The position numbers and the translations under genes are program-made. Shown piece after piece: positions 21,977 through 62,427 of a stretch of DNA of 64,000 bases. Below the pieces are notes generated by a model. That model was given only the letters and a program-made list of their open reading frames with translations, ran no database searches and was not told the origin of the DNA. Within the stretch, counting starts at the first letter, position 1. Every line of letters starts with the position of its first letter. The stretch lies in the NCBI GenBank assembly GCA_000182565.2, contig KQ257451.1; one strand, given 5' to 3'. This DNA is from Spizellomyces punctatus DAOM BR117. Lineage: Eukaryota.

Positions 21977-24900
21977 TCATTTGGCGCACTCTACCGTACG
22001 TCCATTTCCATCTGATCGTGCCCGCCACACAATGTCATCAAGGATATCCTTGGCGATTTTACTAGCTGCTAGCTGTACTGAACGTTTCTTGAATCTTACC
22101 CCGACCGATTCCGGACTTTCATCAGCCAGAGCAGCACTCAAATGGTGCACCGCTACATCGTAGAGGAAAGGTGTTGATGACGATGTAACCTTGCCACTCG
22201 CAAGAGCACTTGCATACAACAGCAAAACTCTCTCCTCAGTTTCATACGGATAGTAAAATTGTGCCGCATCGTCTGCCGTTGGCAGTTGCGACTTCTCCAT
22301 CGTAAAGAGGTGTAACAGTTCCCTCAAATGGTCCCAAAAGAGCTCGCGATAGTCGGAAGGGTAATGCATGGCCAGAGGTAAAAGCAGGTAACGGGCAAAG
22401 ACCTCATCACCAAACGACACAGCACTATAGTGCTCCACCAACTCCTGATACAGCTGGAAAAACTTCCCGCTACCACCACATGCCTCGTCGAGTTCCGAAT
22501 CATTCCACCTGTGAGAACGTGTTCCGTAACGTAACAGCCCAGATGACAACAACTTATTAATATCGGTACGCCTAAACATCTCCTCATCGGTGGACGAAGG
22601 TAGCAGGAAAATGCACATCAAGCGAGCGATCTTGACTGGGTCCGGCAACCTTGTCATATACCATTGCGGTCGCACAATTCGGTCGACCCTTTCCCCTAAC
22701 GCTAAACATTCTGCAACCAAATCATTCGCGTCTTCTCTGTTCTTCTGTTCCCTCTTGGCTCCAATTAGGAGGTGTCCAAACTTCTTCGACTCAGCGAGCA
22801 GAAGGCCGAATGGAGACATTATCCAATCCAGTCGCACAGGCAAGGACGCGTTACCCTCCTGCTCATCTAATATGAGGGAATCCAGGCCCCGCGCCTCGCG
22901 CCCAAACAGTCCTTCCGACCGTTTTAGAGAGGCGTTATCATAGAGGCCGTAATCGAGAAACTCCTGCAAACGTTGTGGTGCAAGCTCCTGGGTTTCCACT
23001 TGCACTAGGGATTCATCCATCGCAATAAGGGTATTCTGGACGCGCGGATGCAATATAAACCTGTTTAGAAGCTTTGAAGCTACGCATTCTTCGCCGGGCA
23101 GGAGTTCCGGAAGTGCTGCGAGGGCTACCGCACAGCCGTATATTCCATCCATGGAATAGTTTACAGTTCCGTGTGACTGGAGGATCTCAGAAGCAAGAAG
23201 CCAAGAGCACAGGAGCATCCCCCTACCCGGCAGAAACCATCGAAGGATATCGCTATGCACAGCGATACGGTCGAGCGACTCAGCAGTTCCAGTGACCCAA
23301 CCAAGTACTTGATCAGTGCTTAATTGTTCAGATACGAATTCATCCCACTCGCGGCCGATACCTACAAATGATGAGCACAAAGTCATGAGGGAGCAACCGT
23401 ACTCAAAGTACGCATTAAGCTCAAGCATGGCGGTTGCAATTGAAGTGCGTGGCTTATTTTGCAACCCAACCAAATGTTGTCCTAGGGGTGGAGTGGCGAC
23501 AGGCACTTGGTTTGCGATAACTTCAATGGAAGACCTAGCGACGCTGAAATTCGGCATTGGTGTGCATCGGATATAGTCCATGATACTCGTCGCCTCTTGT
23601 ATAAAATTAAACCCGTCATCAGTTGGATCCGCCAAAACCTGCTTCCCATACAGCGCCAACATGTCGAAAGCCGCAGAATGAAGAAGATTGCCGCTGGCGT
23701 TCCGTTCCCTTTGGCCTGCGAGAACTTTTTTAAGCACCAAATCTGCAAAAGGCCGCAGAGCATGGTTCGGCGGACAAGTATCTGACATTCCTTCAGCAGA
23801 TTTTAAAAACGCCGTAATCATTCGCAGCAGGAGAATCTGGCTCCGGGCAATCGCCGTAGGCGTCGAAGGCGATGCTTCAGGCACCTCAGAACCGAATAGC
23901 TTTAGTGCACAACTCAAGATCGCTGAGTGGTAGTCATTGAACAACTGAATGCACAATCCATATGAAAAAAGAACACCCAGCAAAGACCATACTTCCGCCT
24001 GAAGGTACCAACTAAGTTCACGCGAACTGTCAGTCAGTTGGTCAGGGGCCAGCATAATAAATTTCATTGCATCCACGACGATGTGAAAGCGGATCAGGCT
24101 CTCAGCAATATCCCTACCACTCTGGCATAATAGTCGCAAAAGTTTGACGGCGTTCAAAGAGGCAGTCGACTGAGATTTGGATATGGAGGGCCATGGACCA
24201 CGTAGGAATTTATTATGTACCACATCCACCAGACCGGGACATTCCGCTATCTGAACCGCGGCTGCATGTGAATGCCGACATATGCGAATCAGAATTTGTA
24301 GGATATCATTCACAGCTTCGGCAGGTAAGTTACGAGATTGCAGGAGGTACCTGAACCGTGCGAGAATATCGGTAGAAATCAGGCCGAGTATGGCGTCACG
24401 TCGAATGAGTTGAATGACAGAACCTATTGAGCCGTCATGATCGATCTTCTCCGATGAAGGTTCCCGTCCAGAAGCGCGGGATTTGAAGTCCGCTTGATTC
24501 GAGACTGATATGGCATACGCTCGGTAACTCAGCCGGGTAAGAAGCACTTGATCCCAGCATTGCTCCTCGTCGTTATCAGTTAGCGACCCCGTCCCCACAC
24601 TTGCGGCAAGAGCGGCGAGGGAATTCGTCACAACGGTCTCGTGAGAGTCGTCCAGTGCGAATCGCAGATGCAGGAGTACATTTGCACGCAAAGAATGCCA
24701 AATCAAGGCTATTCCCCGTGCTTTGCCGTAGGCACCCGCATAAATATCTGCTATAATAGCACCCAAGACTCGCACGCTTGCGGCACGCTGGGCCTGGACC
24801 GTGCTTCTAGACAGGTGTAAAAGCTCGTCAAGAGTATAGCCAGGTGTCTCGGGATCAACCCCATGATGATGCAGACCTCGATGCACAGGAATTTGAGTAC

Positions 24901-25885
24901 CTCTCTCGATAATCCTTCCGGACAAATCAAAGCGCAACTCGGCTGCATTTGTCACCGCGCTGTTGTCAACGATATCGTCCTCCATAAAGCCTATCCATTC
25001 TAATTTTTCATGTTCCGCTTTATCTGCTGGAATCCACGTCTCAATGAAAGACTTAGGATTTCTGAGATTAATATTGTCTTTCATGGAAGTTGACAAATCT
25101 GGTGCTGTCAATTCCGATCGCCCGCCAGCAGAGCGCACGCTCGAATGTTCCCGTGCCTGCCCCAGACACGGTTGCTGCGACACTACGGGTGGCTCTACTA
25201 GGTCTTCTACGTGCGATTCATCACGTCCGTATTTCTGGTTCGCCCTTTGCAGAAGCATCTGGATCAAGGAAGGATCCAACTTTTCACGAATTTCCGCTTG
25301 CGCCTCCTCGATTTCTTGTGCAGACATTGACTGTAATGTCTGCAGATTCTGACCGTGTATATCTGGAGATTCGTCTCCACCTTCAAGACTAAGAAACTCA
25401 TTGAAGTGTGACCTCTGGTGTACGGACTCTGTGATTCTGGTCGAACACGCTCTAATTTGTTTTAGCCTTTGACTACGATGGACAACTGTAGGAAATCCAG
25501 CTGAAGGATGCGGCCCCGTAGGCGCCATCATGGAAGGCGGATCTGGGCTTCGTTCGTGAACATCAGACATCACCTCCCCGAAAAGAGCATCGGCGGAAAC
25601 GACTTCCCTATGCAGCCTTGGTATCTCAGACGCCTCCTTTGACTCTGCTACATCTTGTGCACCCTGCTCTCGTGCCCTACGCTCCGCAAATATCGATCGC
25701 TTTTTGCCGTTATCAGCAGCAGTCGTCAGCCGTGCACTCTTTGCGGGATCCTTAATTGGCTTTCCCGTTCCAGCTATACGCAAGGATTTGGCCGCTGGCT
25801 GCCGCCCACCCACAAAGCTTTCCTGCAGCTGCAGTAACGTGTCCTCATCGTCTTGGGGTGACGGGCGCTCCACACCACGGAACAT
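21977..25885 (-). CDS. RPAP1: RNA polymerase II-associated protein RPAP1/Rba50/MINIYO-like, single exon, 1302 aa
   Basis: LQSMSAQEIEEAQAEI..LDPSLIQML; LRFDLSG; GLHHHG..PGYTLDELLHLSRSTVQAQR; C-terminal HYSAVSFGDEVFA. Confidence 0.92.
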   Translation of the reverse strand: MFRGVERPSPQDDEDTLLQLQESFVGGRQPAAKSLRIAGTGKPIKDPAKSARLTTAADNGKKRSIFAERRAREQGAQDVAESKEASEIPRLHREVVSADALFGEVMSDVHERSPDPPSMMAPTGPHPSAGFPTVVHRSQRLKQIRACSTRITESVHQRSHFNEFLSLEGGDESPDIHGQNLQTLQSMSAQEIEEAQAEIREKLDPSLIQMLLQRANQKYGRDESHVEDLVEPPVVSQQPCLGQAREHSSVRSAGGRSELTAPDLSTSMKDNINLRNPKSFIETWIPADKAEHEKLEWIGFMEDDIVDNSAVTNAAELRFDLSGRIIERGTQIPVHRGLHHHGVDPETPGYTLDELLHLSRSTVQAQRAASVRVLGAIIADIYAGAYGKARGIALIWHSLRANVLLHLRFALDDSHETVVTNSLAALAASVGTGSLTDNDEEQCWDQVLLTRLSYRAYAISVSNQADFKSRASGREPSSEKIDHDGSIGSVIQLIRRDAILGLISTDILARFRYLLQSRNLPAEAVNDILQILIRICRHSHAAAVQIAECPGLVDVVHNKFLRGPWPSISKSQSTASLNAVKLLRLLCQSGRDIAESLIRFHIVVDAMKFIMLAPDQLTDSSRELSWYLQAEVWSLLGVLFSYGLCIQLFNDYHSAILSCALKLFGSEVPEASPSTPTAIARSQILLLRMITAFLKSAEGMSDTCPPNHALRPFADLVLKKVLAGQRERNASGNLLHSAAFDMLALYGKQVLADPTDDGFNFIQEATSIMDYIRCTPMPNFSVARSSIEVIANQVPVATPPLGQHLVGLQNKPRTSIATAMLELNAYFEYGCSLMTLCSSFVGIGREWDEFVSEQLSTDQVLGWVTGTAESLDRIAVHSDILRWFLPGRGMLLCSWLLASEILQSHGTVNYSMDGIYGCAVALAALPELLPGEECVASKLLNRFILHPRVQNTLIAMDESLVQVETQELAPQRLQEFLDYGLYDNASLKRSEGLFGREARGLDSLILDEQEGNASLPVRLDWIMSPFGLLLAESKKFGHLLIGAKREQKNREDANDLVAECLALGERVDRIVRPQWYMTRLPDPVKIARLMCIFLLPSSTDEEMFRRTDINKLLSSGLLRYGTRSHRWNDSELDEACGGSGKFFQLYQELVEHYSAVSFGDEVFARYLLLPLAMHYPSDYRELFWDHLRELLHLFTMEKSQLPTADDAAQFYYPYETEERVLLLYASALASGKVTSSSTPFLYDVAVHHLSAALADESPESVGVRFKKRSVQLAASKIAKDILDDIVWRARSDGNGRTVECAK

Positions 25886-26127
25886 TTTGGGCTCGCAAGA
25901 TCTGCCCGATCAGACATGGTCCAAAAGCTGTGGCGAGATCACGTGGAGAATGAGTCAAATGGATGACCCGCTGGCGAACAGAATCTCCGGCCATAGCGGA
26001 TATTTTTAGTTTTTGGGTCGTTTGACGTCGATACAAGTCCGTAAAGTTTCCTCCATTACCCTTATTTAAGTCGCTGTTGCATCCGCTTTCTTCTCGGCCT
26101 TTCGTGCGCCGGGTGTCCTGATGAGAA

Positions 26128-27408
26128 ATGATAACCCTACCAAGAGGCAGAACACTGCGCCTGCTAATTGGCACAATTCTCGTCGCCATAACTCTTGTAT
26201 GCCTGTCCAATTCCCTGTCCGCCCAAGACTCCGAATACGGCTTCCCCAACGGCATAGCCGAGAAAGCCTATCTTAACCGGATACTCCATCAGCCGGGCTC
26301 ACCCTACACCCGAGCGGATGTGGCTTTCGCTCAAAGGGCTGGGATAACATTGGTCGCAGTGGATAGCGTCGCAAACAACTCAGACACTCTTGGGAAACCG
26401 CGCGTACGTGGCGTTATAGTGATGCTCGCCCGGAATGATGACTTGTATGGTGCCAAGAACGCTATTGGGCAGCTCGAGAAGAGATTCAACCACAAGTACC
26501 ATTATCCGTATGTATATTTAAACGATGAGCCCTTCTCTGAAGACTTCAAAACTACGATGAGAGGGATATCACCAGAGTCGGATGTTCAGTTTGGCCTTGT
26601 TCCTAAAGAACACTGGTCATATCCGGATTGGATAAATCAGACAGTCGCAGCAAACGCTCGGTCAGAGATGGCTGCGAAAGATGTGATCTATGGGGGGAGC
26701 GAATCGTATCGTCACATGTGCCGCTTTAACTCGGGATTTTTCTTCCGCCATCCTTTACTTGACCAATATGATTACTACTGGCGCGTCGAGCCATCAGTGG
26801 AGTTTCTTTGCGACATTCCTGACGATCCGTTCCGGTATATGCAAGAAAACAATAAGCTGTACGGATTTACTGTTTCGCTCTACGAGTTCCCGGAAACGAT
26901 ACCTACTCTATGGAAAACAGTTCGTCAGTTCATGAATGAGCATCCTAGCTTCGTACGAAAGGACAATTCCATGCGCTGGCTTGGAAATAAGCCTGACGAG
27001 TATAATCTCTGTCACTTTTGGTCGAATTTTGAGATTGCCAGCCTTCACCTATGGCGATCCCGGGCGTACTTGGAGTTTTTCAATTACTTAGATAAAGCGG
27101 GTGGCTTTTTTTACGAGAGGTGGGGGGATGCTCCAGTTCACTCGATCGCTGTCAGCATGCTTTTAAAGCCCGCACAGATACACTTCTTCAACGAAATCGG
27201 CTACTACCACAATCCTATTATGCACTGCCCTGTGGATCAACCTGCCATGGCAGGTCGATGTCAGTGTGATGGTTCCGAAACATTTGACTTGCAACATTAC
27301 TCTTGTACAGGTCGTTGGTTTGACCTATTTGGGGGAGGAGAAGCGTCGAGGCGCGCCTTCAAACTCCAGCAAGAGCGCAAGCGTGCTGAAAGGTCTAAGC
27401 AGTCATAG
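26128..27408 (+). CDS. Alpha-1,2-mannosyltransferase, GT15 (KRE2/KTR/MNT1 family), single exon
   Basis: N-terminal TM; VMLARN, SYRHMCRFNSGFF, YYWRVEP, YNLCHFWSNFEI, GGFFYERWGDAPVHSIA. Confidence 0.96.
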   Translation: MITLPRGRTLRLLIGTILVAITLVCLSNSLSAQDSEYGFPNGIAEKAYLNRILHQPGSPYTRADVAFAQRAGITLVAVDSVANNSDTLGKPRVRGVIVMLARNDDLYGAKNAIGQLEKRFNHKYHYPYVYLNDEPFSEDFKTTMRGISPESDVQFGLVPKEHWSYPDWINQTVAANARSEMAAKDVIYGGSESYRHMCRFNSGFFFRHPLLDQYDYYWRVEPSVEFLCDIPDDPFRYMQENNKLYGFTVSLYEFPETIPTLWKTVRQFMNEHPSFVRKDNSMRWLGNKPDEYNLCHFWSNFEIASLHLWRSRAYLEFFNYLDKAGGFFYERWGDAPVHSIAVSMLLKPAQIHFFNEIGYYHNPIMHCPVDQPAMAGRCQCDGSETFDLQHYSCTGRWFDLFGGGEASRRAFKLQQERKRAERSKQS

Positions 27409-33008: not shown

Positions 33009-36000
33009 ATGGCAAGTTTAGTGGGTGCGCCAGCCGTGCCTTCACCTGCTCCACAAAATATTGGCATACCATCACCGCCTTCACTTCCTGCGCTGGTAGG
33101 CCCATGTCTTCCTCATCGCGTTCACCCCATCTACGGCTCGTTCCACTTTCCACAATGCGATGGAATCTTGCCAACCCTCCATAGCGCGTCTACTATCTCG
33201 TCGTCAGCAGCACAGTCGGCAACGCATTCCGAGTCGTTTCAGGAGACTGCTGAACGAGAACTTGTGGAGGCGGTCATGTCTGGCGATGTTTCGAGGGTGT
33301 CCGACCTTTTGAAAACACAGGGAAAGCAGAACCTTGAAATTCAGGAACAAGACTCTTTCAAAGAATTTTCATCTGGCAGAGGCGTTTCGAACGCTACAGG
33401 GTTGGGATTAGTACACTATGCTGCCTCACGTGGACATTTGGAAGTGCTTCAACTGTTGGTCGAAAGAACGTCCCTGGTGGATGTTGACGTCAAAGACCGC
33501 GAAGGCGAGGTAATGCACACTTCATAGATATTCAATACCCTGAACTCTATTTCATACTTCTGTGCACCAGACACCTCTATTAAAAGCAGCGTACAACGGT
33601 CACACACAAGTCGTACGATATCTCCTCTCAAAGAATGCAAATGTCAACCAACAAGACAGTGACGGGTGGTCAGCACTGCATAACTGCGCATCGCGAGGTC
33701 ATCTATTTGCAGCAAGAGCAATCATTGAAGGTGGCGCAGACGTCAACGCCAAAAGCCGAACAGGCCACACCCCATTAAGTGCGTTCCTTGAGTGTGAATA
33801 CGATTGTTCATGTGTTAACGTACGATCGCTGTTGTAGTGAGTGCGAGCGCTAAGGGATTTCTGGATTTAGTGGAACTGCTTTTAAACAACAAGGCTGACC
33901 CGCTTGTGAAGAACAATTTTGGAGACACCGCGTATGACTTGGCTGCTCAATCGGAGGAGGCCTACATTTGTGAAGTGCTACAAGTGTCGGAACAGGATAC
34001 CTTGGAGCGGCTATCCAGGGATCAAGGTAAGGTGGTGGTGCTGAAACTGTTCCAGGAGTGCGAAGCCTCACCCTTGGTCAGCAGGGCAACGTGGGTCAAA
34101 GCACCCACTAATGGCTCAGCACAATACGGTTGTTGAAGTGATTCATGAGAACCAGCGATCAGGGTTCCTCTCCCGACAATTTTCTGTGGCAAATTTAAGT
34201 AAGAATGACATCCGAGGTCCATGGTCTAGTTCGGCAGGGCGCCCATGCACTCTTGAAGATGTGCATTTACCGCTAGTGCGAAACCCGCAGTCGGGGCAGC
34301 TGGTCAGGGGATGGTTTTGGTTGACGGATTGGCGTGTGGACACCAAGCATCCGAGAGTAGACCCTGTGGAAGGCTGGCAGGTAAGCTTGGTAGTGAATCA
34401 TGAGATCAAAAAACGTCGGCTGAATCGCTGCACGTCAGTATGCCAAAGCATTTGAGGAACCAGACGCACAATGGACAGCAGCACCAATTGGTTCGACCTT
34501 GGCGATGACTGGTTGGGTGCGGCGCAGACGGTGGATCCGTGTTCGCAAGCGAAGAGTCGATGATACATCTGGCAGCAGGGGAGAGCAAGATGCCGATGGT
34601 ATTGATGCCACTGGCGACTATGTCGCTCGGGCGCAAGCTCTTGTGCAGAATATTCCGCAAGATGCAAACGAAGGTGACATGCATATGGTGAAAGATGAGC
34701 TACAATCATATGAGGAAGCCATTGCGATGCTTCTTACCGGCATCAAAAGTATGTTGACACTGCAATCCTTCAAAGAAGTCTCCCGCCTAATACATCATTC
34801 AGGCGAAAAACGTGCGGATGTCAAACGAATGGCTTCTTCGCTGGTCACTTCATATTTGGAGCATGCTGAACAGCTAAATACCCTCATCAATACGGTCGCA
34901 GAGGGAGAGGAGGAGGAGGAGGGGAAATCTACGGGTTCACCAGCAGCATCCAGCTCTAAAGGCAAATTACCTTTAGGAGGGAATGGTGGTGAGTGACACG
35001 TAGCCTTTTTTTGAGATGATTTATCCATAGAGCTTGTTAACATGCATTGAAGGGCAGCCCTCGACACAGGTAAATCAAATAGTTGAAAGCATGCCGGATA
35101 CACAGGAGCGGCCGGAGGTCCTTGACGAACACGCCCAACCTCCATCGCCTCTACCCTTTGGAGAGGCGCGATCAATGGCAATCTCGACCCCAATTAATCC
35201 CCTCAGTGGAACTACTTCTTCTGCACCGCTTGCCATGTCACCGATATCATCATGGCAACCTGATGACGAAGCTCCCCAATGTTCGCAATGTCAGCGCCGC
35301 TTTACGATATGGCTGCGAAGACATCACTGCCGGTATGTTCGGGTCGTCGCATTGCATTTTCCAGTGTTGAACTCGCTGTACACATGGTTGACGCGCTTCT
35401 TAGGTGGTGCGGCCGTATTTTCTGTGCGAATTGCACCGCATCCAGGCTTCCTCTATTTCCCAACACCGCACCCCATCGGGTCTGTGACTCCTGCTTTGAC
35501 TATCTTTCGAACCGCAATGCCCATTCCACACCCCCCTCCACCCCAACACATATGGGCGATCCCCCGTCACCGTCACGATCGGCGTATTCGGCCGCTGAGA
35601 GCATCATGAATGAGTGTCCTGTTTGTCAAGCCAGTCTAGACAACCAAAATATGTCCGAAGAGGAAATGGAGGCACATGTTGCAGATTGCTTGGATAGAGT
35701 CGCCACTGGACGGGGACAAGGGCAGTTGATCAGCGGCAATCGTTATGTGGGTGGGTAAATTGTTATTAGGCCTCAAGAACTGTTTAGAGCCTCTCAATGT
35801 AACCTGGTGGTGTCCCACATTAGTCCAGATTCTGAAAGAGGACCTTCCGAATAGGGAGTGCGCAATCTGCTTTGAGGAATTTCTGCAAGGTGTGATGCGC
35901 AATCGGCCGGTCTATCGCCTTTGACTTCTTGCCAGTCGTATTTACTAAGCTTCGAAATAGGGCAACGAATAGCGCGATTGAATTGTCTCTGTTTATATCA

Positions 36001-36073
36001 CCAGCATTGCATTGAAGCTTGGTTTACGAATCCGAATTTCGGCAGCCGGGCCTGCCCTGTACATTTCAAATAA
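33009..36073 (+). CDS. Ankyrin-DysF-MIT-like-FYVE-RING-H2 protein (Pib1-like E3 ubiquitin ligase with a long N-terminal extension)
   Basis: Ankyrin repeats (TPLLKAAYNGH, GWSALHNCASRGH); DysF (IHENQR...GWFWLTDWRVD...EGWQYA...VRRRRWIRVR); MIT-like helices; FYVE (WQPD..RRHHCRWCGRIFC..RVCDSC); ECPVC..HVADC; RING-H2 ECAICFEEF..RLNCLCLYHQHCI..CPVH. Confidence 0.85.
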
Positions 36074-36177
36074 TAGTGGACAGGAAGAAAAGTAGTTTCC
36101 GTTATCGTATATAGGGAGCAGAGGCGGCATGCTTGCCAAATCACATTGATCTATTATCGAAACACCCAATATTAAAT

Positions 36178-37423
36178 TTATGCTCCAAAGCGTTGCTGAC
36201 AACTGGCGTATTGTTTCATGCCTCTTCTATACCCCATAAATGACAATTCCCCTTGCACCGCACTGTATCACACAGATTATCAGGAGAAACGACAATAAGT
36301 GGAATACGAAGGTCATCTACAAACCAGAATTCAGAGAGACGGATATTCCATGGACAGAGGTTCCCGATTTCAACGAAATTTGATTGGCAGCCAACCACAT
36401 AGATTAATTCAGGTTCTGGAAACTGGTTCAGATCGGGGCTATCTGTGGTATTTGTTATAAGGAGAGGGGCACCGGAAGGAGCCGTGTTCTGGAATAAAGA
36501 AACTGTCACGTACCAGCCTTTATGAGCTTGTCTATCAGGTCCACGTCTGCAGTGAGGTGAACGGGGTTGTCAGCACGAGAAGCCGCGAGCGCTTGCCGTG
36601 CCAGTGTTCTGGCTACGCGAACGAGCGAATTTCGCCCATCGGACGCCGAAATAAGATTCACCAACAGGTCTACATCAAAGTATGAAAATAATGCGAGGAA
36701 TTACAATAACAAACTTCCCCCTTACCAACATGTCGCCCGCTTTCTGAATTTTTATTTGACGACGTCGATGGTTGTGGTTCATCGGTAGGTCGACGGACAC
36801 CATGTGGATCCAAATCTATTCCTTCATCCAGGATAGTCCGCTCTCTTTGGGTACGATCTATTGGCGAACCAGATACCAAGAACTGGATGCTTGCTTTTGC
36901 TTGCACCGGTGGATCAGCACTCTCTCGACAGAAGTCAAGCTTGTCGACAATTTGCGCCAAACTTGCAGCATGGGATTTTAATAATCCTGCATACGTTTGA
37001 GAGCTATGATTAATTTGAAAATTGAAAAGCTTCAAGAGGTCAGTTTACATTGCAACAATAGTATATATTACCCTTCTCGTCAAACACTGTTAAGCACGCC
37101 ACACCATCGGATAAGCACCACTCCACTATGTTCCCCACTGAATTCATCCAGCTTTGGTACTCGCCGTCTTCGTCGTACGCTGAACTCAAGCTGTGCTGCA
37201 GAGGCCGAAACACTACCGCCACGTGGCGTGGACGCTTTCCGCGCAGTTCGTTGTCCTGGTCCACAGGTTTCTTCGGACCCCAAAAGGCAACCCAAACAGT
37301 GCGGAACCATAGCACAATTGCCAAGAGACGCAGATAAATGAACCTCGACGGGAAAGAGGACACCAGCTGCGAGCCTCCTGAAGGTCTCTGAAGTGCCTGG
37401 GAAGTTACCGGAGGTATTGTCAT
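36178..37423 (-). CDS. NUS1: Dehydrodolichyl diphosphate synthase subunit NUS1 (Nogo-B receptor)
   Basis: KRPRHVAVV, IVEWCLSDGVACLTVFDEKG, PEPELIYV, PWNIRLSEF, last exon QYASCQQRFGA* (RxG motif). An alternative in-frame start lies at 37519. Confidence 0.88.
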
Positions 37424-40497: not shown

Positions 40498-42133
40498 TTA
40501 AGAGGACGAATGGTATTGAATCATCCCTATCGATGCAACTATTAGCGCTGGCGTGAATTAGCGAAATTTCCATTACAAGGCTCACCAAACTTTCCGTTGA
40601 CCATCCAACCCTTATCTTCAGCAGTAAGTTGCTCAGCTTGCCCAGGTTTCAGTCCAACTGCGACATCGCTTTTGCAAGTTCGGAGTAAGAGGAGTGGCGG
40701 AGTCTTATCATTCGCTAAGGGGCCCAGGGCTTCCTTGAATGGCGTGGTTACTGGCCATTCCGCGTCATAAACAGCTTTGCGATAATTCAAGTCGCCCTTG
40801 AAGATCAAGAAATCCGATCGACACATATATTCGTAGATATGCTTTCCTGCAGTGGGAAGCTGCCAAAAAGGATATGGCAACGTCCAGAATGGATCTACTC
40901 TGACTTCCCAGGTGCCGTCCGCAAGCAATGCTCGCCATTTCTCCAACCGATGGAGCAGAATAGCGTTATTAGTTGCGCGTGCATGGTTTTCCACTGCGTC
41001 CAAAGTCCATTTGAAATCTCTGTGGGTGGTATCGCTGACGAACCATGGGAAGGCCTTTGCATGGAACACTATTTTGGCCGCAGTACTCGAATGCACAAGC
41101 CAATCTGCGAGACACAGATCCGCAAACAGCTCAAAACCTACAGATGGGTTGGATTATCTGGACTTTCTGATTAGGCATCTGGCAAACTCTCACCTGCATT
41201 ATCCAAGATGATGTCGACCCTCCCGCGTTTGATGCCCTCCAGTCGTTGAAGAACTTTTTCCAGGTCGTTAACAATGACCTTTTCTTCAACCTTTGCCAAG
41301 CTTCCGGCCGATGTCGTCTGCATCGCGTGTATATCGGCGTGAGTCACGTTGATAAGCAGAGACAGGTCTGTTTGATTGCCCCATAGGGAAAACTATGCAG
41401 AGAGACTTAATTCAAAGGTGCTGCATTATTGCTACAAAATAACGCACTTGCAGGAATTCTTTCAAAATTGCCTTTCGCTCCAATTCGTTGGTTAGCGACA
41501 GCTCTACGTCATGGAGGTGCTTCCCAAGCTCCTCCACGGATTTGAGTGATCCAAATAGAGCCGGCTAAAGGAGGAGATGTCATTGAACCGCTCTATAGTA
41601 TTTGATCATTCAATAACATACGATGAACAATGAAAGTCACCTCCTTCTGCTGTGCGGCAAACACATCAAAATCCTTCCAATATTTAGTTCGACTAAATAT
41701 CTCGCGAATTTTTCTGTACTAGAGTGGACTGTTCAGTCAGAATCATTATTGGCCGACAGCTTGCAATAGTCACCATGTAGCACTCGACAAAGAGCCAAGG
41801 CGCCGAGAACCAAGTCTTCTTGTCCTTGGCAACCGCCCCTAGCAGGAAGTTCCAGGTTTCCGCATCCTCTTCCGAATCCCGAAGGATATCTAAGGGACGA
41901 TCCCTCTGTAGCTCATATGTCAGTTTGCTCAACTGAGATATGCAGTCCTTGGCTTCCGCAGTTTTCTCGGCGGGATAGTCATCTGTCTCGGCATGCAGGG
42001 TTCGCGTAAGAGTGTCGATGGCTTTTGTCAATATGACGGGAAGCCTGTCCTTCACCGTAACATATGCAAACGATCCTTTGACCTCGCCCCTTAGGGGTAA
42101 GACGTTTGGAGGAAGCTCCGCGAGACGCTCCAT
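40498..42133 (-). CDS. ARMT1: ARMT1/DUF89 damage-control phosphatase
   Basis: SFAYVTVKDRLPVILTKAID, WFSAPWLFVECY, LWGNQTDLSL, IILDNAGFELFADL, KAFPWFVSDT, IFKGDLNYRK, LRTCKSD, GKFGMIQY. Confidence 0.93.
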
Positions 42134-42206
42134 GTCTCAAATGACGACAAAAAACCCGCTTACCAGTCCGATCGCTTCGTCCTGTCAAATGTCACACTAA
42201 ATGAGC

Positions 42207-50429: not shown

Positions 50430-50933
50430 CTACTTCTTTTTAATACTAGACAGTGGTGCACCAATGTCTTTGCCGCGCAACTTCACGCCCAGAACCCGCT
50501 CCATCTTCGCCAAGACTTGCTGGTTTGGATTTGCTGCTTTCCCCGTTTCGTATTCGTTCACCACGGTTGCCTTTTCGTTGATTTTGGTAGCCAAGTCCTT
50601 CTGCGTCAATCCCTTTGCCTGTCGCGCCTGTTGAATTGCCTTCGCTACGGACAAGCCCAATCGTTCAACCGTGAAATCCTGAAAATGACTCATCGTCAAC
50701 ATGATGTTCCATTCGTACGTGATCCTTAGATGATGACATACCTCCGTCTCATTGTCAATCTTTGCAGCTTTTCCTGCATCAATCCCCGCACGCTGTGCAT
50801 TGGTTGTGGATTTCTTCTCTGATGTGACGGATCCACCACCTCGTCGTGCAGCGTTCACAGCCGATTCTGACTTGAGAGCTTTGCTGGTCTCAGGGCGCTT
50901 GCGAATCACGGTAACATCATCCCAGGAGCTCAT
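50430..50933 (-). CDS. MBF1: Multiprotein bridging factor 1
   Basis: WDDVTVIRK, AVNAARR, AKIDNETE, LTQKDLATKINEK..YETGKA..LAKMERVLGVKLRGKDIG; one in-frame intron. Confidence 0.96.
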   Translation of the reverse strand: MSSWDDVTVIRKRPETSKALKSESAVNAARRGGGSVTSEKKSTTNAQRAGIDAGKAAKIDNETEVCHHLRITYEWNIMLTMSHFQDFTVERLGLSVAKAIQQARQAKGLTQKDLATKINEKATVVNEYETGKAANPNQQVLAKMERVLGVKLRGKDIGAPLSSIKKK

Positions 50934-51932
50934 ATTGAGGATGTTTCAAGTGCTGTTCTGTTAAAATAAATGCGATGCTGAATCTAAGTTGCTGAGCGGC
51001 GATGTGGAGTTTGTAAGCTGGTTGCCAGGATCGCAATAGAAGGTGAGCGAAGTTGGGAGCTCGCAGTCATTCCTTTTAAGGAAGAATGATCGAATATGTC
51101 GCAGTAACTGCCACAACGTGACTGTACCTCCCGTTATCAGTAGACAAAGGACCTGTGTAGCAGAGAGCCAAATCAGAGCGAGAGCAGCTACTACTTGTCT
51201 CCAATTACGCTCTCCAGCCTGTAATCCCGTTGGGCAATAAACAAATGGTCAGCCGTGGCTTCACTTGGAGTCTGGCCAAGAAGTCTAGCATTAAGGGTTT
51301 ACAATCCTTCAACACTGTTTCGAGGGCTTCAATAAGACGGCGGTCAGAGGAAGGGAAAGTTATGTGCTTTTCTTACTCTTAACGCCACTCGCACTGTTTG
51401 TGTCATTTGTCGTTGTCGTTCATCATTATTCCAGCGTGGGTTCAAACATTTCGGCCCGGTGACAACCAGCCCGGATGAAGCTACCAGCTATTCCTAGGCA
51501 TAATTGCACATTCAATACATCCCGGTTGGTCTAACCTGGTAACTAGTGCCCACGGCCTTCTTCGTTGCAGATGCTGTAAGTCGAGGGAGGATAAAGAACA
51601 AGAGTGGGTATTATAGAGAAATGACTGGATACAATGAGAGCAACTGCAGAATGTTTCTCTCATCAGATAGCTGCTGAGAGCAATCAATGATTAATGGCCG
51701 CACGGGCAATAGGGGTCTGTCGTTATTGTTTATCTTCATGATGATCACGTGTTTATTCAATTGGCTGCATTTTCGCGACACTAGCGACCGGTCATAGTAA
51801 CGGGTGGCACAGCAACCATGTTCCAACAGGCTCTTTGCTACCAGCTGGAGATCACTAGCAAATTCAGACCTGTATTTAAGATTGTTACCAGTAGATCCTT
51901 TGGCATTCCTCAGTCTGACTGAAGAAAGAACG

Positions 51933-61334: not shown

Positions 61335-61890
61335 ACGGCGTTTACAGGGCATCAATTGAAAAAGATACGCACGTAGTCGCAAGGTTTTTGGGAAGGATAA
61401 AGGGTTTAAAAGATGTACTGAAAGTACTGCTAGTTTTTAGTTGTTCGCAACACCCTCCAGGCTGCACTAGTACCTTTCATCAAAGAGAGGTCTGTTTATG
61501 TCATCACTTTTAGTTCACGTGCTTCTTGATCACGTGCTGCATTCTTTGGAGATTTTGCTGAACTTGAAATCCTCTCCATGTTGCGTACGTTAAACATTGA
61601 ACAACAAACGTTGGTTTTTCGGCACGCATAACCAGGTGTGTATAGTAACGTGCGCGGGTTGCAGATGCAACGGCATCGGTATAAAGAGCCTTGCACGATG
61701 TCTAATGTCAAATGCTGAAACGTTTTCTACTGTTGCGTTTTGTCTGGTCAGTGTCCTCTATCTATCTTTGCTGGCTCTGAGTAGCAGTTGTCCACTATTG
61801 TAGCATAGCGTATGTGTAATATTCTCTGTGGTTGAAACCTTGCACAACTCTCACGCCCGTTTCGCCTTAGATCACGCCGTGCCGCCGAGC

Positions 61891-62427
61891 ATGACTGTTC
61901 CAAATGACACCTCACTAAGCGGGTTCGATATTGACGAGTTCGTCACTTGTGCCCGCTATGGCGAACTAGATGACCTTAAGGCACTCATTTCATCATACCT
62001 TACATCCCAAGGACAAGATCAATCGTCTACAAACCCTGCAACACTCCGCGCCTTATACACATCCGCCCTTCCAAACGGAAACACTGCGTTGCATATGGCT
62101 GCCGCTAACGGTGAAATAGAGGTTCTTCAGTACCTGTTGCCGCAGCTGACTGTTGGAGATGTGAACATAGGGAACAGCGATGGGTCAACTGCACTACATT
62201 GGGCCGCGTTGAATGGGAAATTGGACTGCGTGGAACTGTTGTTGTCGTGCGGGGCGGATGCAACGATTAAAAACGAACAGGGACGAAGTCCTGTGACTGT
62301 GGCGGAGCAACAGGGACATTTGGAGGTCGTTAATGCATTGCTTAAATCGTATGAACCGGATGAAGAGGAGGCCGACGAAAGTACACCACAGGAGGGCAGT
62401 GCATCTACAGAACCCGTAGATAGTTAA
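61891..62427 (+). CDS. YAR1: Ankyrin-repeat protein Yar1-like (Rps3 chaperone), single exon
   Basis: DEFVTCARYGELDDL, GNTALHMAAANG, GSTALHWAALNG, acidic tail. Confidence 0.82.
   Translation: MTVPNDTSLSGFDIDEFVTCARYGELDDLKALISSYLTSQGQDQSSTNPATLRALYTSALPNGNTALHMAAANGEIEVLQYLLPQLTVGDVNIGNSDGSTALHWAALNGKLDCVELLLSCGADATIKNEQGRSPVTVAEQQGHLEVVNALLKSYEPDEEEADESTPQEGSASTEPVDS

Follow-up and report, generated by a model that had tools for sequence, protein, structure and literature searches.

The gene at positions 33009-36073 (plus strand) of a 64,000-nucleotide (nt) stretch of contig KQ257451.1 of Spizellomyces punctatus DAOM BR117 (GenBank assembly GCA_000182565.2; the whole stretch is referred to as the window) encodes a protein in which ankyrin repeats (ANK), a DysF domain, an MIT-like three-helix bundle, a FYVE zinc finger, a UBZ-type finger and a RING follow one another in this order. 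Judged from its sequence, the gene belongs to the fungal Upa1/Pib1 family as an orthologue of chytrid (Spizellomyces-like) type, and the long form with all modules is probably ancestral in that family. [quoted passage not shown] An original prediction, made from the DNA letters, had called the same six domains, and our mapped coordinates closely agree with the positions it gave. Statements cited below by PMC number refer to the available portions of those articles.

The gene comprises 10 exons (33009-33509, 33571-33778, 33838-34026, 34085-34380, 34439-34748, 34803-34988, 35053-35332, 35404-35750, 35824-35889 and 35961-36073), which join in phase into a coding sequence of 2496 nt, corresponding to 831 codons and a stop. 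All 9 introns, 54-73 nt in length, are of the GT..AG type. Intron 5 (34749-34802, 54 nt) is in frame and devoid of stop codons and thus resembles coding sequence in a stop-to-stop list of open reading frames (ORFs). The acceptor of intron 3 is a NAGNAG pair (34082 or 34085), of which 34085 was taken to agree with P0001, a hypothetical protein of 773 amino acids (aa) from Spizellomyces sp. 'palustris'. After splicing, the protein shares 94.7% identity with P0001 over 772 aa and aligns end to end with 2 complete proteins from Spizellomycetales, P0013 and P0014 (48% identity over 828 and 802 aa, respectively), so that the reading frame is well beyond chance. The single-chain layout with phase-consistent exons, as originally proposed, is thus borne out by the 10-exon frame and by the recurrence of such chains in orthologues. 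The C-terminus of P0001, 'NRYVGG', is a read-through into intron 8, as a result of which the RING is missing from the public model; by contrast, P0007 (Chytridiales), P0004 (Synchytrium), P0005 (Jimgerdemannia), P0013 and P0014 continue past this intron as exons 9 and 10 do. In practical terms, public models of the gene in related species end inside intron 8 and hence lack the RING. The model of P0003, which ends 'NRYVGELAK', also reads into intron 8 (window 35751-35823) and loses the RING, and in many Mortierellomycotina models the RING is missing from the precomputed Pfam annotation, probably from a cause of the same kind.

Transcript evidence covers parts of the gene. RNA run X9, which is 3'-biased and consists of 60-nt reads (409 reads placed), is unsuited to the middle junctions; it lies over the last exons, its first mates being on the plus strand and its depth rising from 4.4 to 49.6 (peak bin 36006-36136), and a loose end of 15 A behind position 36197 (5 reads) marks the poly(A) site, giving a 3' untranslated region at 36074-36197. 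At the exon 9/10 junction, the loose letters of 7 reads starting at exon 10 (35959) correspond to the end of exon 9, with an agreement of 0.73. A contig from a rhizosphere metatranscriptome (X2 record 1) is identical to exon 2 over 33575-33778 and then passes across the intron-2 junction into the beginning of exon 3. This contig also indicates that the same or a near-identical organism transcribed the gene in that rhizosphere sample. X3 and X4 are collinear with the genome including the introns, i.e., DNA-like, and provide no transcript evidence. RNA support for the single transcript expected from the layout is thus partial, extending to the last exons, the exon 9/10 junction and the intron-2 junction, but not across introns 3-8.

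When the 10 exons were translated singly and scanned with Pfam, ankyrin families matched in pieces 1-3, Pex24p (covering part of the DysF domain) in piece 4 with 18.5 bits, the 2 halves of the FYVE domain with 33.2 and 31.0 bits, UBZ_FAAP20 with 18.1 bits, and zf-RING_2 with 19.9 bits in the last piece, which holds the second half of the RING; no match was obtained in pieces 5 and 6. The ankyrin block of about five repeats (33252-33983) spans introns 1 and 2, and Ank_2 scores 155 bits in P0001. It is preceded by a conserved motif of the P..P...H..YG..H type (33093-33149), recognized in the alignment consensus of the relatives and common to the chytrid proteins and P0041 of Rhizophagus (Glomeromycotina). 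Between the MIT-like bundle and the FYVE domain lies a low-complexity linker (34898-35252, aa 534-630, spanning intron 6), which starts with an acidic run and is poorly conserved, with a gap-rich alignment.

The C-terminal half contains three zinc-binding modules. The FYVE domain (35253-35506, spanning intron 7; Pfam FYVE 70.3 bits in P0001) carries the WxxD, RRHHCR and RVC signatures, present in the spliced model as WQPD, RRHHCR and RVC. For the CxxC..HxxxC finger that follows, the original call holds and can be refined to a UBZ4-type C2HC finger (35612-35695, CPVC ... H...C): its ligands C, C, H, C, spaced C-x2-C ... H-x3-C, are invariant in all 27 aligned family members, with which the window residues agree, although the UBZ_FAAP20 score of 18.1 bits is below the cut-off of 25. 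The best PDB sequence match is the UBZ domain of FAAP20, at a weak E of 0.39, with all four ligands aligned. The last domain (35856-36064, spanning intron 9) is a RING, as had been predicted, but not of the predicted H2 type. In the 27-member alignment, its ligands (C-x2-C ... C-x-C-x2-H-x2-C ... C-x2-H) are invariant or near-invariant and Ile, Trp and Pro occupy the usual places of contact with the ubiquitin-conjugating enzyme (E2); Cys is invariant at ligand 4 and His near-invariant at ligand 8, whereas a RING-H2 has His at ligands 4 and 5 and Cys at ligand 8, which makes the domain a RING variant rather than a strict RING-H2. Exons 9 and 10 align to P0004, P0005 and P0007, in which zf-RING_2 reaches 32-35 bits. 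A fold model of this region was made from the 267-aa protein P0072 and has an overall pLDDT of 67.5, with values of 76-89 in the three zinc domains; in it, the UBZ is a beta-hairpin followed by a helix (178-193), i.e., beta-beta-alpha, with a pLDDT of 78-88. The top Foldseek match of the model is ZNRF1 with Ube2N (5ywr_B; E 3e-6, 38% identity over 104 columns), followed by FYVE domains, among them those of EEA1, endofin, Hrs and Vps27, and by the RING-E2 complexes of RNF12, Ark2C, RNF165, RNF13 and RNF38.

The 2 central segments had been proposed to fold as DysF and MIT domains, and the fold model, two independent structure comparisons and sequence profiles uphold both assignments. An AlphaFold2 model was built for the residues of P0001 equal to aa ~303-540 of the gene model from an alignment of 38 relatives (mean pLDDT 87.7, pTM 0.56) and consists of a beta-rich domain, a disordered loop and three helices. 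The DysF domain (34120-34555, spanning intron 4; Pfam Pex24p 29.1 bits at aa 302-432 of P0001) retains all of the characteristic motifs, W.W..DW, GWQY and RRRRW. DysF domains consist of two long beta strands with a loop wrapped around them, which is held by stacked Trp and Arg residues (stacking described in PMC10476172), and the DysF part of the model, with a pLDDT mostly >90, has long strands at 12-23 and 123-134 (model numbering). Foldseek matched it to the inner DysF domain of dysferlin (4cah, E 5.1e-6) and to TECPR1's N-terminal DysF domain (8p5p_A, TMt 0.85, root mean square deviation 2.3), and VIA-align, which is independent of Foldseek, superimposed 105 of 107 residues on 8p5p_A with Z 11.9, a root mean square deviation of 2.1 and 34% identity; the DysF domain of dysferlin is nearly as near (Z 10.2, 31% identity). 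At the level of sequence, designed ankyrin proteins dominated the matches when P0002 was compared with PDB sequences by phmmer, and dysferlin 4cah was reached at E 0.0029; TECPR1 8p5p was matched neither by P0002 nor by the two DysF exon halves, which yielded chance matches only (a phage tail protein and designed trefoils). In the basidiomycete Upa1-type proteins P0068, P0070, P0057 and P0058, the HENQR, GWQY and WVRRRRW motifs are kept, with long insertions between them, and W.W..DW is altered; the insertions may explain why domain tools miss DysF in these proteins.

The MIT-like bundle (34616-34897) spans the in-frame intron 5 and comprises helices 156-166, 177-200 and 204-236 (model numbering), the first two being separated by a long, variable loop. 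Its structure matches are the MIT domains of Vps4, MITD1, SKD1, ULK3, NRBF2, calpain-7 and Atg1, with a TMt of 0.76 to the Vps4 MIT 4niq_A in Foldseek and Z values of 10.5 to 2v6x_A and 11.0 to the Atg1 tMIT 4p1n_B in VIA-align. Because helical bundles reach such Z values easily, the assignment was also tested by sequence. The Pfam MIT model matched 8 of 10 family segments (best E 4.2e-7), and when a profile of the 10 segments was compared with PDB, MIT chains made up 13 of the top 14 matches (E 0.007-0.09), including those of VPS4A/B, MITD1, yeast Vps4 and calpain-7. In the HMMER alignment to the MIT domain of VPS4B, the Y-L-x-x-A-E-x-L signature in helix 3 of the family stands opposite YLDRAEKL. 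Searched against 1.84 billion representative proteins, the profile gave 88 matches at E <= 1e-3, of which 18 were family members already collected. By Pfam, the 70 new matches comprise 35 family-type proteins (FYVE, ANK, RING), 15 bona fide MIT proteins, 5 unrelated proteins with repeats or coiled coils, and 15 proteins that were unmatched at 1e-5. The 15 bona fide MIT proteins, all above the curated cut-off, include Vta1-MIT, MIT-AAA, MIT-MIT_C, two kinase-MIT and one MIT-RING protein. On these comparisons of sequence, the segment is homologous to MIT domains. With the MIT domains of VPS4, MITD1, Vta1, ULK3 and calpain-7, it shares the three-helix bundle and the sequence signature in helices 2 and 3, and it differs from them in scoring below the Pfam cut-off in the lineage of the window, in its long helix 1-2 loop and in its setting beside DysF in an E3. 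The Linnemannia relative scores 30.4 bits with Pfam MIT. In Basidiomycota, a segment is retained at the MIT position, and Pfam MIT matches neither of the 2 tested even at E 10. The MIT-profile search also returned P0112 (337 aa), in which two MIT domains are accompanied by a C3HC4 RING; although unrelated, it is another chain that combines MIT with an E3 module.

The module order recurs across fungi. Of 987 candidates in a search with the DysF-MIT region, 70 qualified as relatives at E <= 1e-3; they belong to chytrids, Mortierellomycotina, Glomeromycotina, Mucorales, Endogonales, Basidiobolus and Basidiomycota; based on precomputed Pfam annotations counted manually, 44 of the 70 have both Ank_2 and FYVE, and 17 also have zf-RING_2. 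Complete ANK-DysF-MIT-FYVE-UBZ-RING chains are present in P0007, P0013 and P0014. The Thecaphora frezii protein P0068, named 'FYVE zinc finger domain protein upa1', is collinear with the window model (E 3e-42 over ANK-DysF, 2e-10, and 6e-35 over FYVE-UBZ-RING). When the FYVE-UBZ-RING region of P0013 was used as a query for shorter relatives, 8 of 53 candidates matched, among them the yeast protein P0078, named 'phosphatidylinositol-3-phosphate-binding ubiquitin-protein ligase', to which the window model aligns over FYVE (2e-10) and UBZ-RING (1e-13). The window protein thus has the FYVE motifs, the invariant UBZ-RING ligands and the collinear similarity to named members that define membership of the Upa1/Pib1 family.

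It had been stated that no characterised protein with this architecture was known. This does not hold, because Ustilago maydis Upa1, a member of the same family, has been characterised, and described as containing a PAM2 motif, two PAM2-like motifs, five ankyrin repeats, a FYVE domain and a RING (PMC4466420). In a comparison of Upa1 orthologues (bioRxiv 10.1101/467787), N-terminally extended forms are present in every other fungal clade and the ascomycete ones are shorter, the ankyrin form is regarded as primordial and Pib1-type proteins as shortened orthologues, and DysFN and DysFC are given for some orthologues, with Spizellomyces named in a figure legend. In the portions available, the Upa1 drawings of PMC4466420 and PMC9249222 show ANK, FYVE and RING only, whereas in the preprint some orthologues also have DysFN/DysFC. 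No paper assigning an MIT domain to Upa1 or Pib1 was found in literature searches, and the architecture is already in print except for the MIT-like bundle. The gene is therefore an ordinary orthologue of a known family and defines no new system. Its interest is that the chytrid form retains all ancestral modules, clear and unbroken, and reveals an MIT-type bundle and a DysF domain that are absent from the published Upa1 domain drawings, so far as those articles were available.

Compared with its characterised relatives, the window protein shares with Upa1 (of U. maydis and, here, T. frezii P0068) the order ANK, DysF, helical segment at the MIT position, FYVE, UBZ and RING, and the FYVE domain targets Upa1 to endosomes (PMC4466420). 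Upa1 differs in its length of about 1265-1287 aa, a long N-terminal extension, long insertions inside DysF and a segment at the MIT position that, in smuts, no longer matches Pfam MIT; it also has one PAM2 and two PAM2-like motifs, which bind Pab1 and Rrm4 and are lacking in the window protein. Pib1 of Saccharomyces cerevisiae (here, yeast P0078) has the same FYVE, UBZ and RING with the same invariant ligands and is a PI3P-targeted E3 of endosome and vacuole membranes with an ESCRT-sorted substrate (PMC7055007), but Pib1-type proteins are short (362 aa in P0078) and without the ankyrin, DysF and MIT-like parts. Animal ZNRF1 and ZNRF2 resemble the C-terminal part in having a UBZ-type finger followed by a RING, 5ywr_B being its best structural match, and Pib1p has been considered a putative ZNRF2 orthologue with UBZ and RING common to both (PMC4889327). 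Unlike the window protein, ZNRF proteins reach membranes through N-myristoylation rather than FYVE (PMC4889327) and are without ANK, DysF and MIT.

By analogy with these relatives, PI3P targeting and E3 activity are the most likely properties of the window protein. The FYVE domain would hold the protein on PI3P-rich endosomal or vacuolar membranes, as the FYVE domain of Upa1 is needed for its endosomal localisation and shuttling (PMC4466420). DysF would provide a second membrane contact, with a lipid, as the identity of the domain suggests, or with a surface, and the ankyrin block would bind a substrate or partner. The UBZ-RING module would recruit an E2 and ubiquitinate membrane-associated substrates, the UBZ finger, going by the kind of domain it is, probably holding ubiquitin. 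Through the MIT-like bundle, the ligase would dock to a partner that carries an MIT-interacting motif, the likeliest being an ESCRT-III subunit such as Did2/CHMP1, Vps2 or Ist1, in which case ubiquitination would occur where cargo is sorted. A direct contact with ESCRT-III is plausible from what the bundle is, and the idea gains some ground from the combination of a real MIT-like segment with the sorting of Pib1 substrates by ESCRT: Pib1, located on the vacuole and endosomes, helps to ubiquitinate a protein of the vacuole membrane, and ESCRT-dependent microautophagy then sorts this protein (PMC7055007). In a Pfam scan of 30 larger ORFs of the window, no Snf7-family gene was detected.

Several observations weigh against this view of the protein as an ESCRT-III-docked ligase. 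Three-helix bundles reach middling structural Z values from their arrangement alone, and the MIT segment of P0001 is below the Pfam cut-off of 30, with 23.3 bits in the full-length protein and 27.3 bits in the segment. MIT domains also bind partners other than ESCRT-III. The sequence matches of the UBZ finger are individually weak (18-19 bits; PDB E 0.39). Introns 3-8 are crossed by no RNA read, and no read set (X9, X2) covers the whole gene; since RNA over the middle junctions is absent, the main basis for the single chain is the orthologues, a good number of them predictions themselves, and the chytrid members are known from sequence alone. Finally, the RING of Upa1 was dispensable in Ustilago under the conditions tested (PMC4466420), so that E3 activity is not proven to be central for the long forms.

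If the bundle does bind ESCRT-III, the window protein would join work on endolysosomal ligases of the Pib1/ZNRF type with that on Did2-dependent endosomal mRNA transport in Ustilago, two fields hitherto separate. It would also suggest that Upa1 acquired its mRNA-adaptor role in Basidiomycota, where PAM2-like motifs were gained onto an older ubiquitin-sorting enzyme. A broader and more tentative extension is that the whole Upa1/Pib1 family descends from an E3 with a true MIT domain and that an ESCRT-III subunit, e.g., Did2/CHMP1, still serves the long forms as a direct docking site through its C-terminal MIT-interacting motif; we regard this as possible, with the balance tilted against it. Were it true, the long forms would be ESCRT-III-recruited ubiquitin ligases. 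In a did2 deletion of Ustilago, Upa1-Gfp is almost gone from endosomes, which the authors attribute indirectly to a change in the identity of the endosomes (PMC5415202); direct docking of the MIT segment to Did2 would offer a direct explanation for this loss. The divergence of the smut segment, in which Pfam MIT finds no match, tempers a direct link between Did2 and Upa1.

The same divergence bears on the alternative that the bundle is not an ESCRT-III receptor, but a regulatory or scaffold module or a binding site for some non-ESCRT partner, the protein then being a Pib1-like E3 with extra targeting domains. That the segment is under the Pfam cut-off in the lineage of the window, that Basidiomycota lost the MIT signature yet keep the segment, and that the MIT-fold domains of Atg1 (tMIT 4p1n, Z 11.0) and NRBF2 bind non-ESCRT partners would all fit this alternative. 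However, the family profile reaches MIT proteins of the ESCRT circle (Vta1, MIT-AAA, MITD1-type and ULK3-type kinases) with library-wide E values of 2.5e-8 to 6e-4, and the signature residues of helix 3 are retained in chytrids and Mucoromycota. We consider a bundle unrelated to ESCRT-III unlikely and favor its being the docking site of an ESCRT-III-coupled ligase.

About as improbable is a second alternative, suggested in the original prediction, in which DysF would sense a lipid on damaged endolysosomes in the manner of TECPR1, MIT would recruit or follow ESCRT-III repair and the RING would mark the organelle. TECPR1's N-terminal DysF domain, which has the same fold and is the closest solved DysF, does give the best superposition of the DysF model (Z 11.9, TMt 0.85), and the MIT-like domain and the E3 module do share one chain. 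TECPR1 itself differs, being a beta-propeller scaffold for ATG5-ATG12 rather than a RING E3. Moreover, sphingomyelin binding is peculiar to that single domain of TECPR1 and depends on residues at its tip (W77, W154 and their neighbours), of which ferlin DysF domains conserve little (PMC10476172). The dysferlin domain is almost as close to the model (Z 10.2, 31% identity), and a FYVE domain alone predicts constitutive PI3P binding, for which damage is unnecessary. Also weighing against lipid-damage sensing, fungi generally produce inositol-phosphoceramides in place of sphingomyelin. Thus, damage sensing by DysF rests on the analogy with TECPR1, for which the DysF fold alone is insufficient, and this part of the prediction is not supported.

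Still less likely is that the window protein works like U. maydis Upa1, as an adaptor that brings an Rrm4-type protein and its mRNAs to moving endosomes. Its orthology to Upa1, the potential Rrm4 orthologues in Chytridiomycota and the endosomal shuttling of distant Upa1 orthologues in U. maydis (both bioRxiv 10.1101/467787) would be in line with such a role. The binding of Upa1 to Rrm4 is through its two PAM2-like motifs, which consist of an acidic run and a subsequent FxxP (PMC9249222). In a regular-expression scan of 80 proteins, PAM2-like motifs were found in 11, namely 8 of the 9 named Basidiomycota, in which they are located just after the segment at the MIT position, and 3 unnamed proteins, but in no named chytrid, Mucoromycota or Zoopagomycota relative; a second scan, of the window model and 9 other non-basidiomycete members, found none. 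The same kind of scan detected neither canonical PAM2 nor PAM2-like motifs in the window protein, linker included. The protein is therefore probably not an Rrm4 messenger ribonucleoprotein adaptor of the Ustilago kind, and the mRNA-adaptor role looks, from the distribution of the motifs, like a later addition to the family. We also considered the conserved N-terminal motif as a degenerate PAM2-like motif, given that Gaertneriomyces has YVYP there, and rejected it, as the window has LVGP and no acidic run.

That two adjacent genes, ANK-DysF-MIT and FYVE-UBZ-RING, have been wrongly joined is very improbable: it would accommodate the lack of RNA reads across introns 3-8 and the annotation of short FYVE-UBZ-RING proteins of 267 aa (P0072, Gaertneriomyces semiglobifer) and 273 aa (P0073, Batrachochytrium salamandrivorans), but the linker is an open, phase-consistent exon pair with no stop, start context or intergenic gap, ANK and FYVE share one chain in 44 of the 70 relatives, Ustilago Upa1 is expressed as one 1287-aa protein (PMC4466420), and P0072 has 97% identity with the C-terminal portion of P0013 (785 aa), which comes from the same genus, and is thus a truncated model.

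The genes around the ligase gene are ordinary eukaryotic genes, with no evident link to it in a Pfam scan of the larger ORFs of the window. They encode an RPAP1-like protein (1310-aa ORF, 21980-25909, minus strand), a Glyco_transf_15 mannosyltransferase (26125-27405, plus strand, 414.9 bits), an ARMT1-like damage-control phosphatase divided between two ORFs (40545-42136, minus strand), MBF1 (50433-50945, minus strand) and a second ankyrin-repeat ORF (61804-62424, plus strand, Ank_2 112.5 bits), as well as a CTLH protein and a Sel1-repeat protein. At 36137-36500 lies a convergent minus-strand gene whose ORFs gave no Pfam match in the same scan. It contains a 62-nt intron (joint 36262/36325, CT..AC) supported by 12 reads, and its coverage begins within about 60 nt of the plus-strand poly(A) site at 36197, so that the 3' ends of the 2 genes may overlap.

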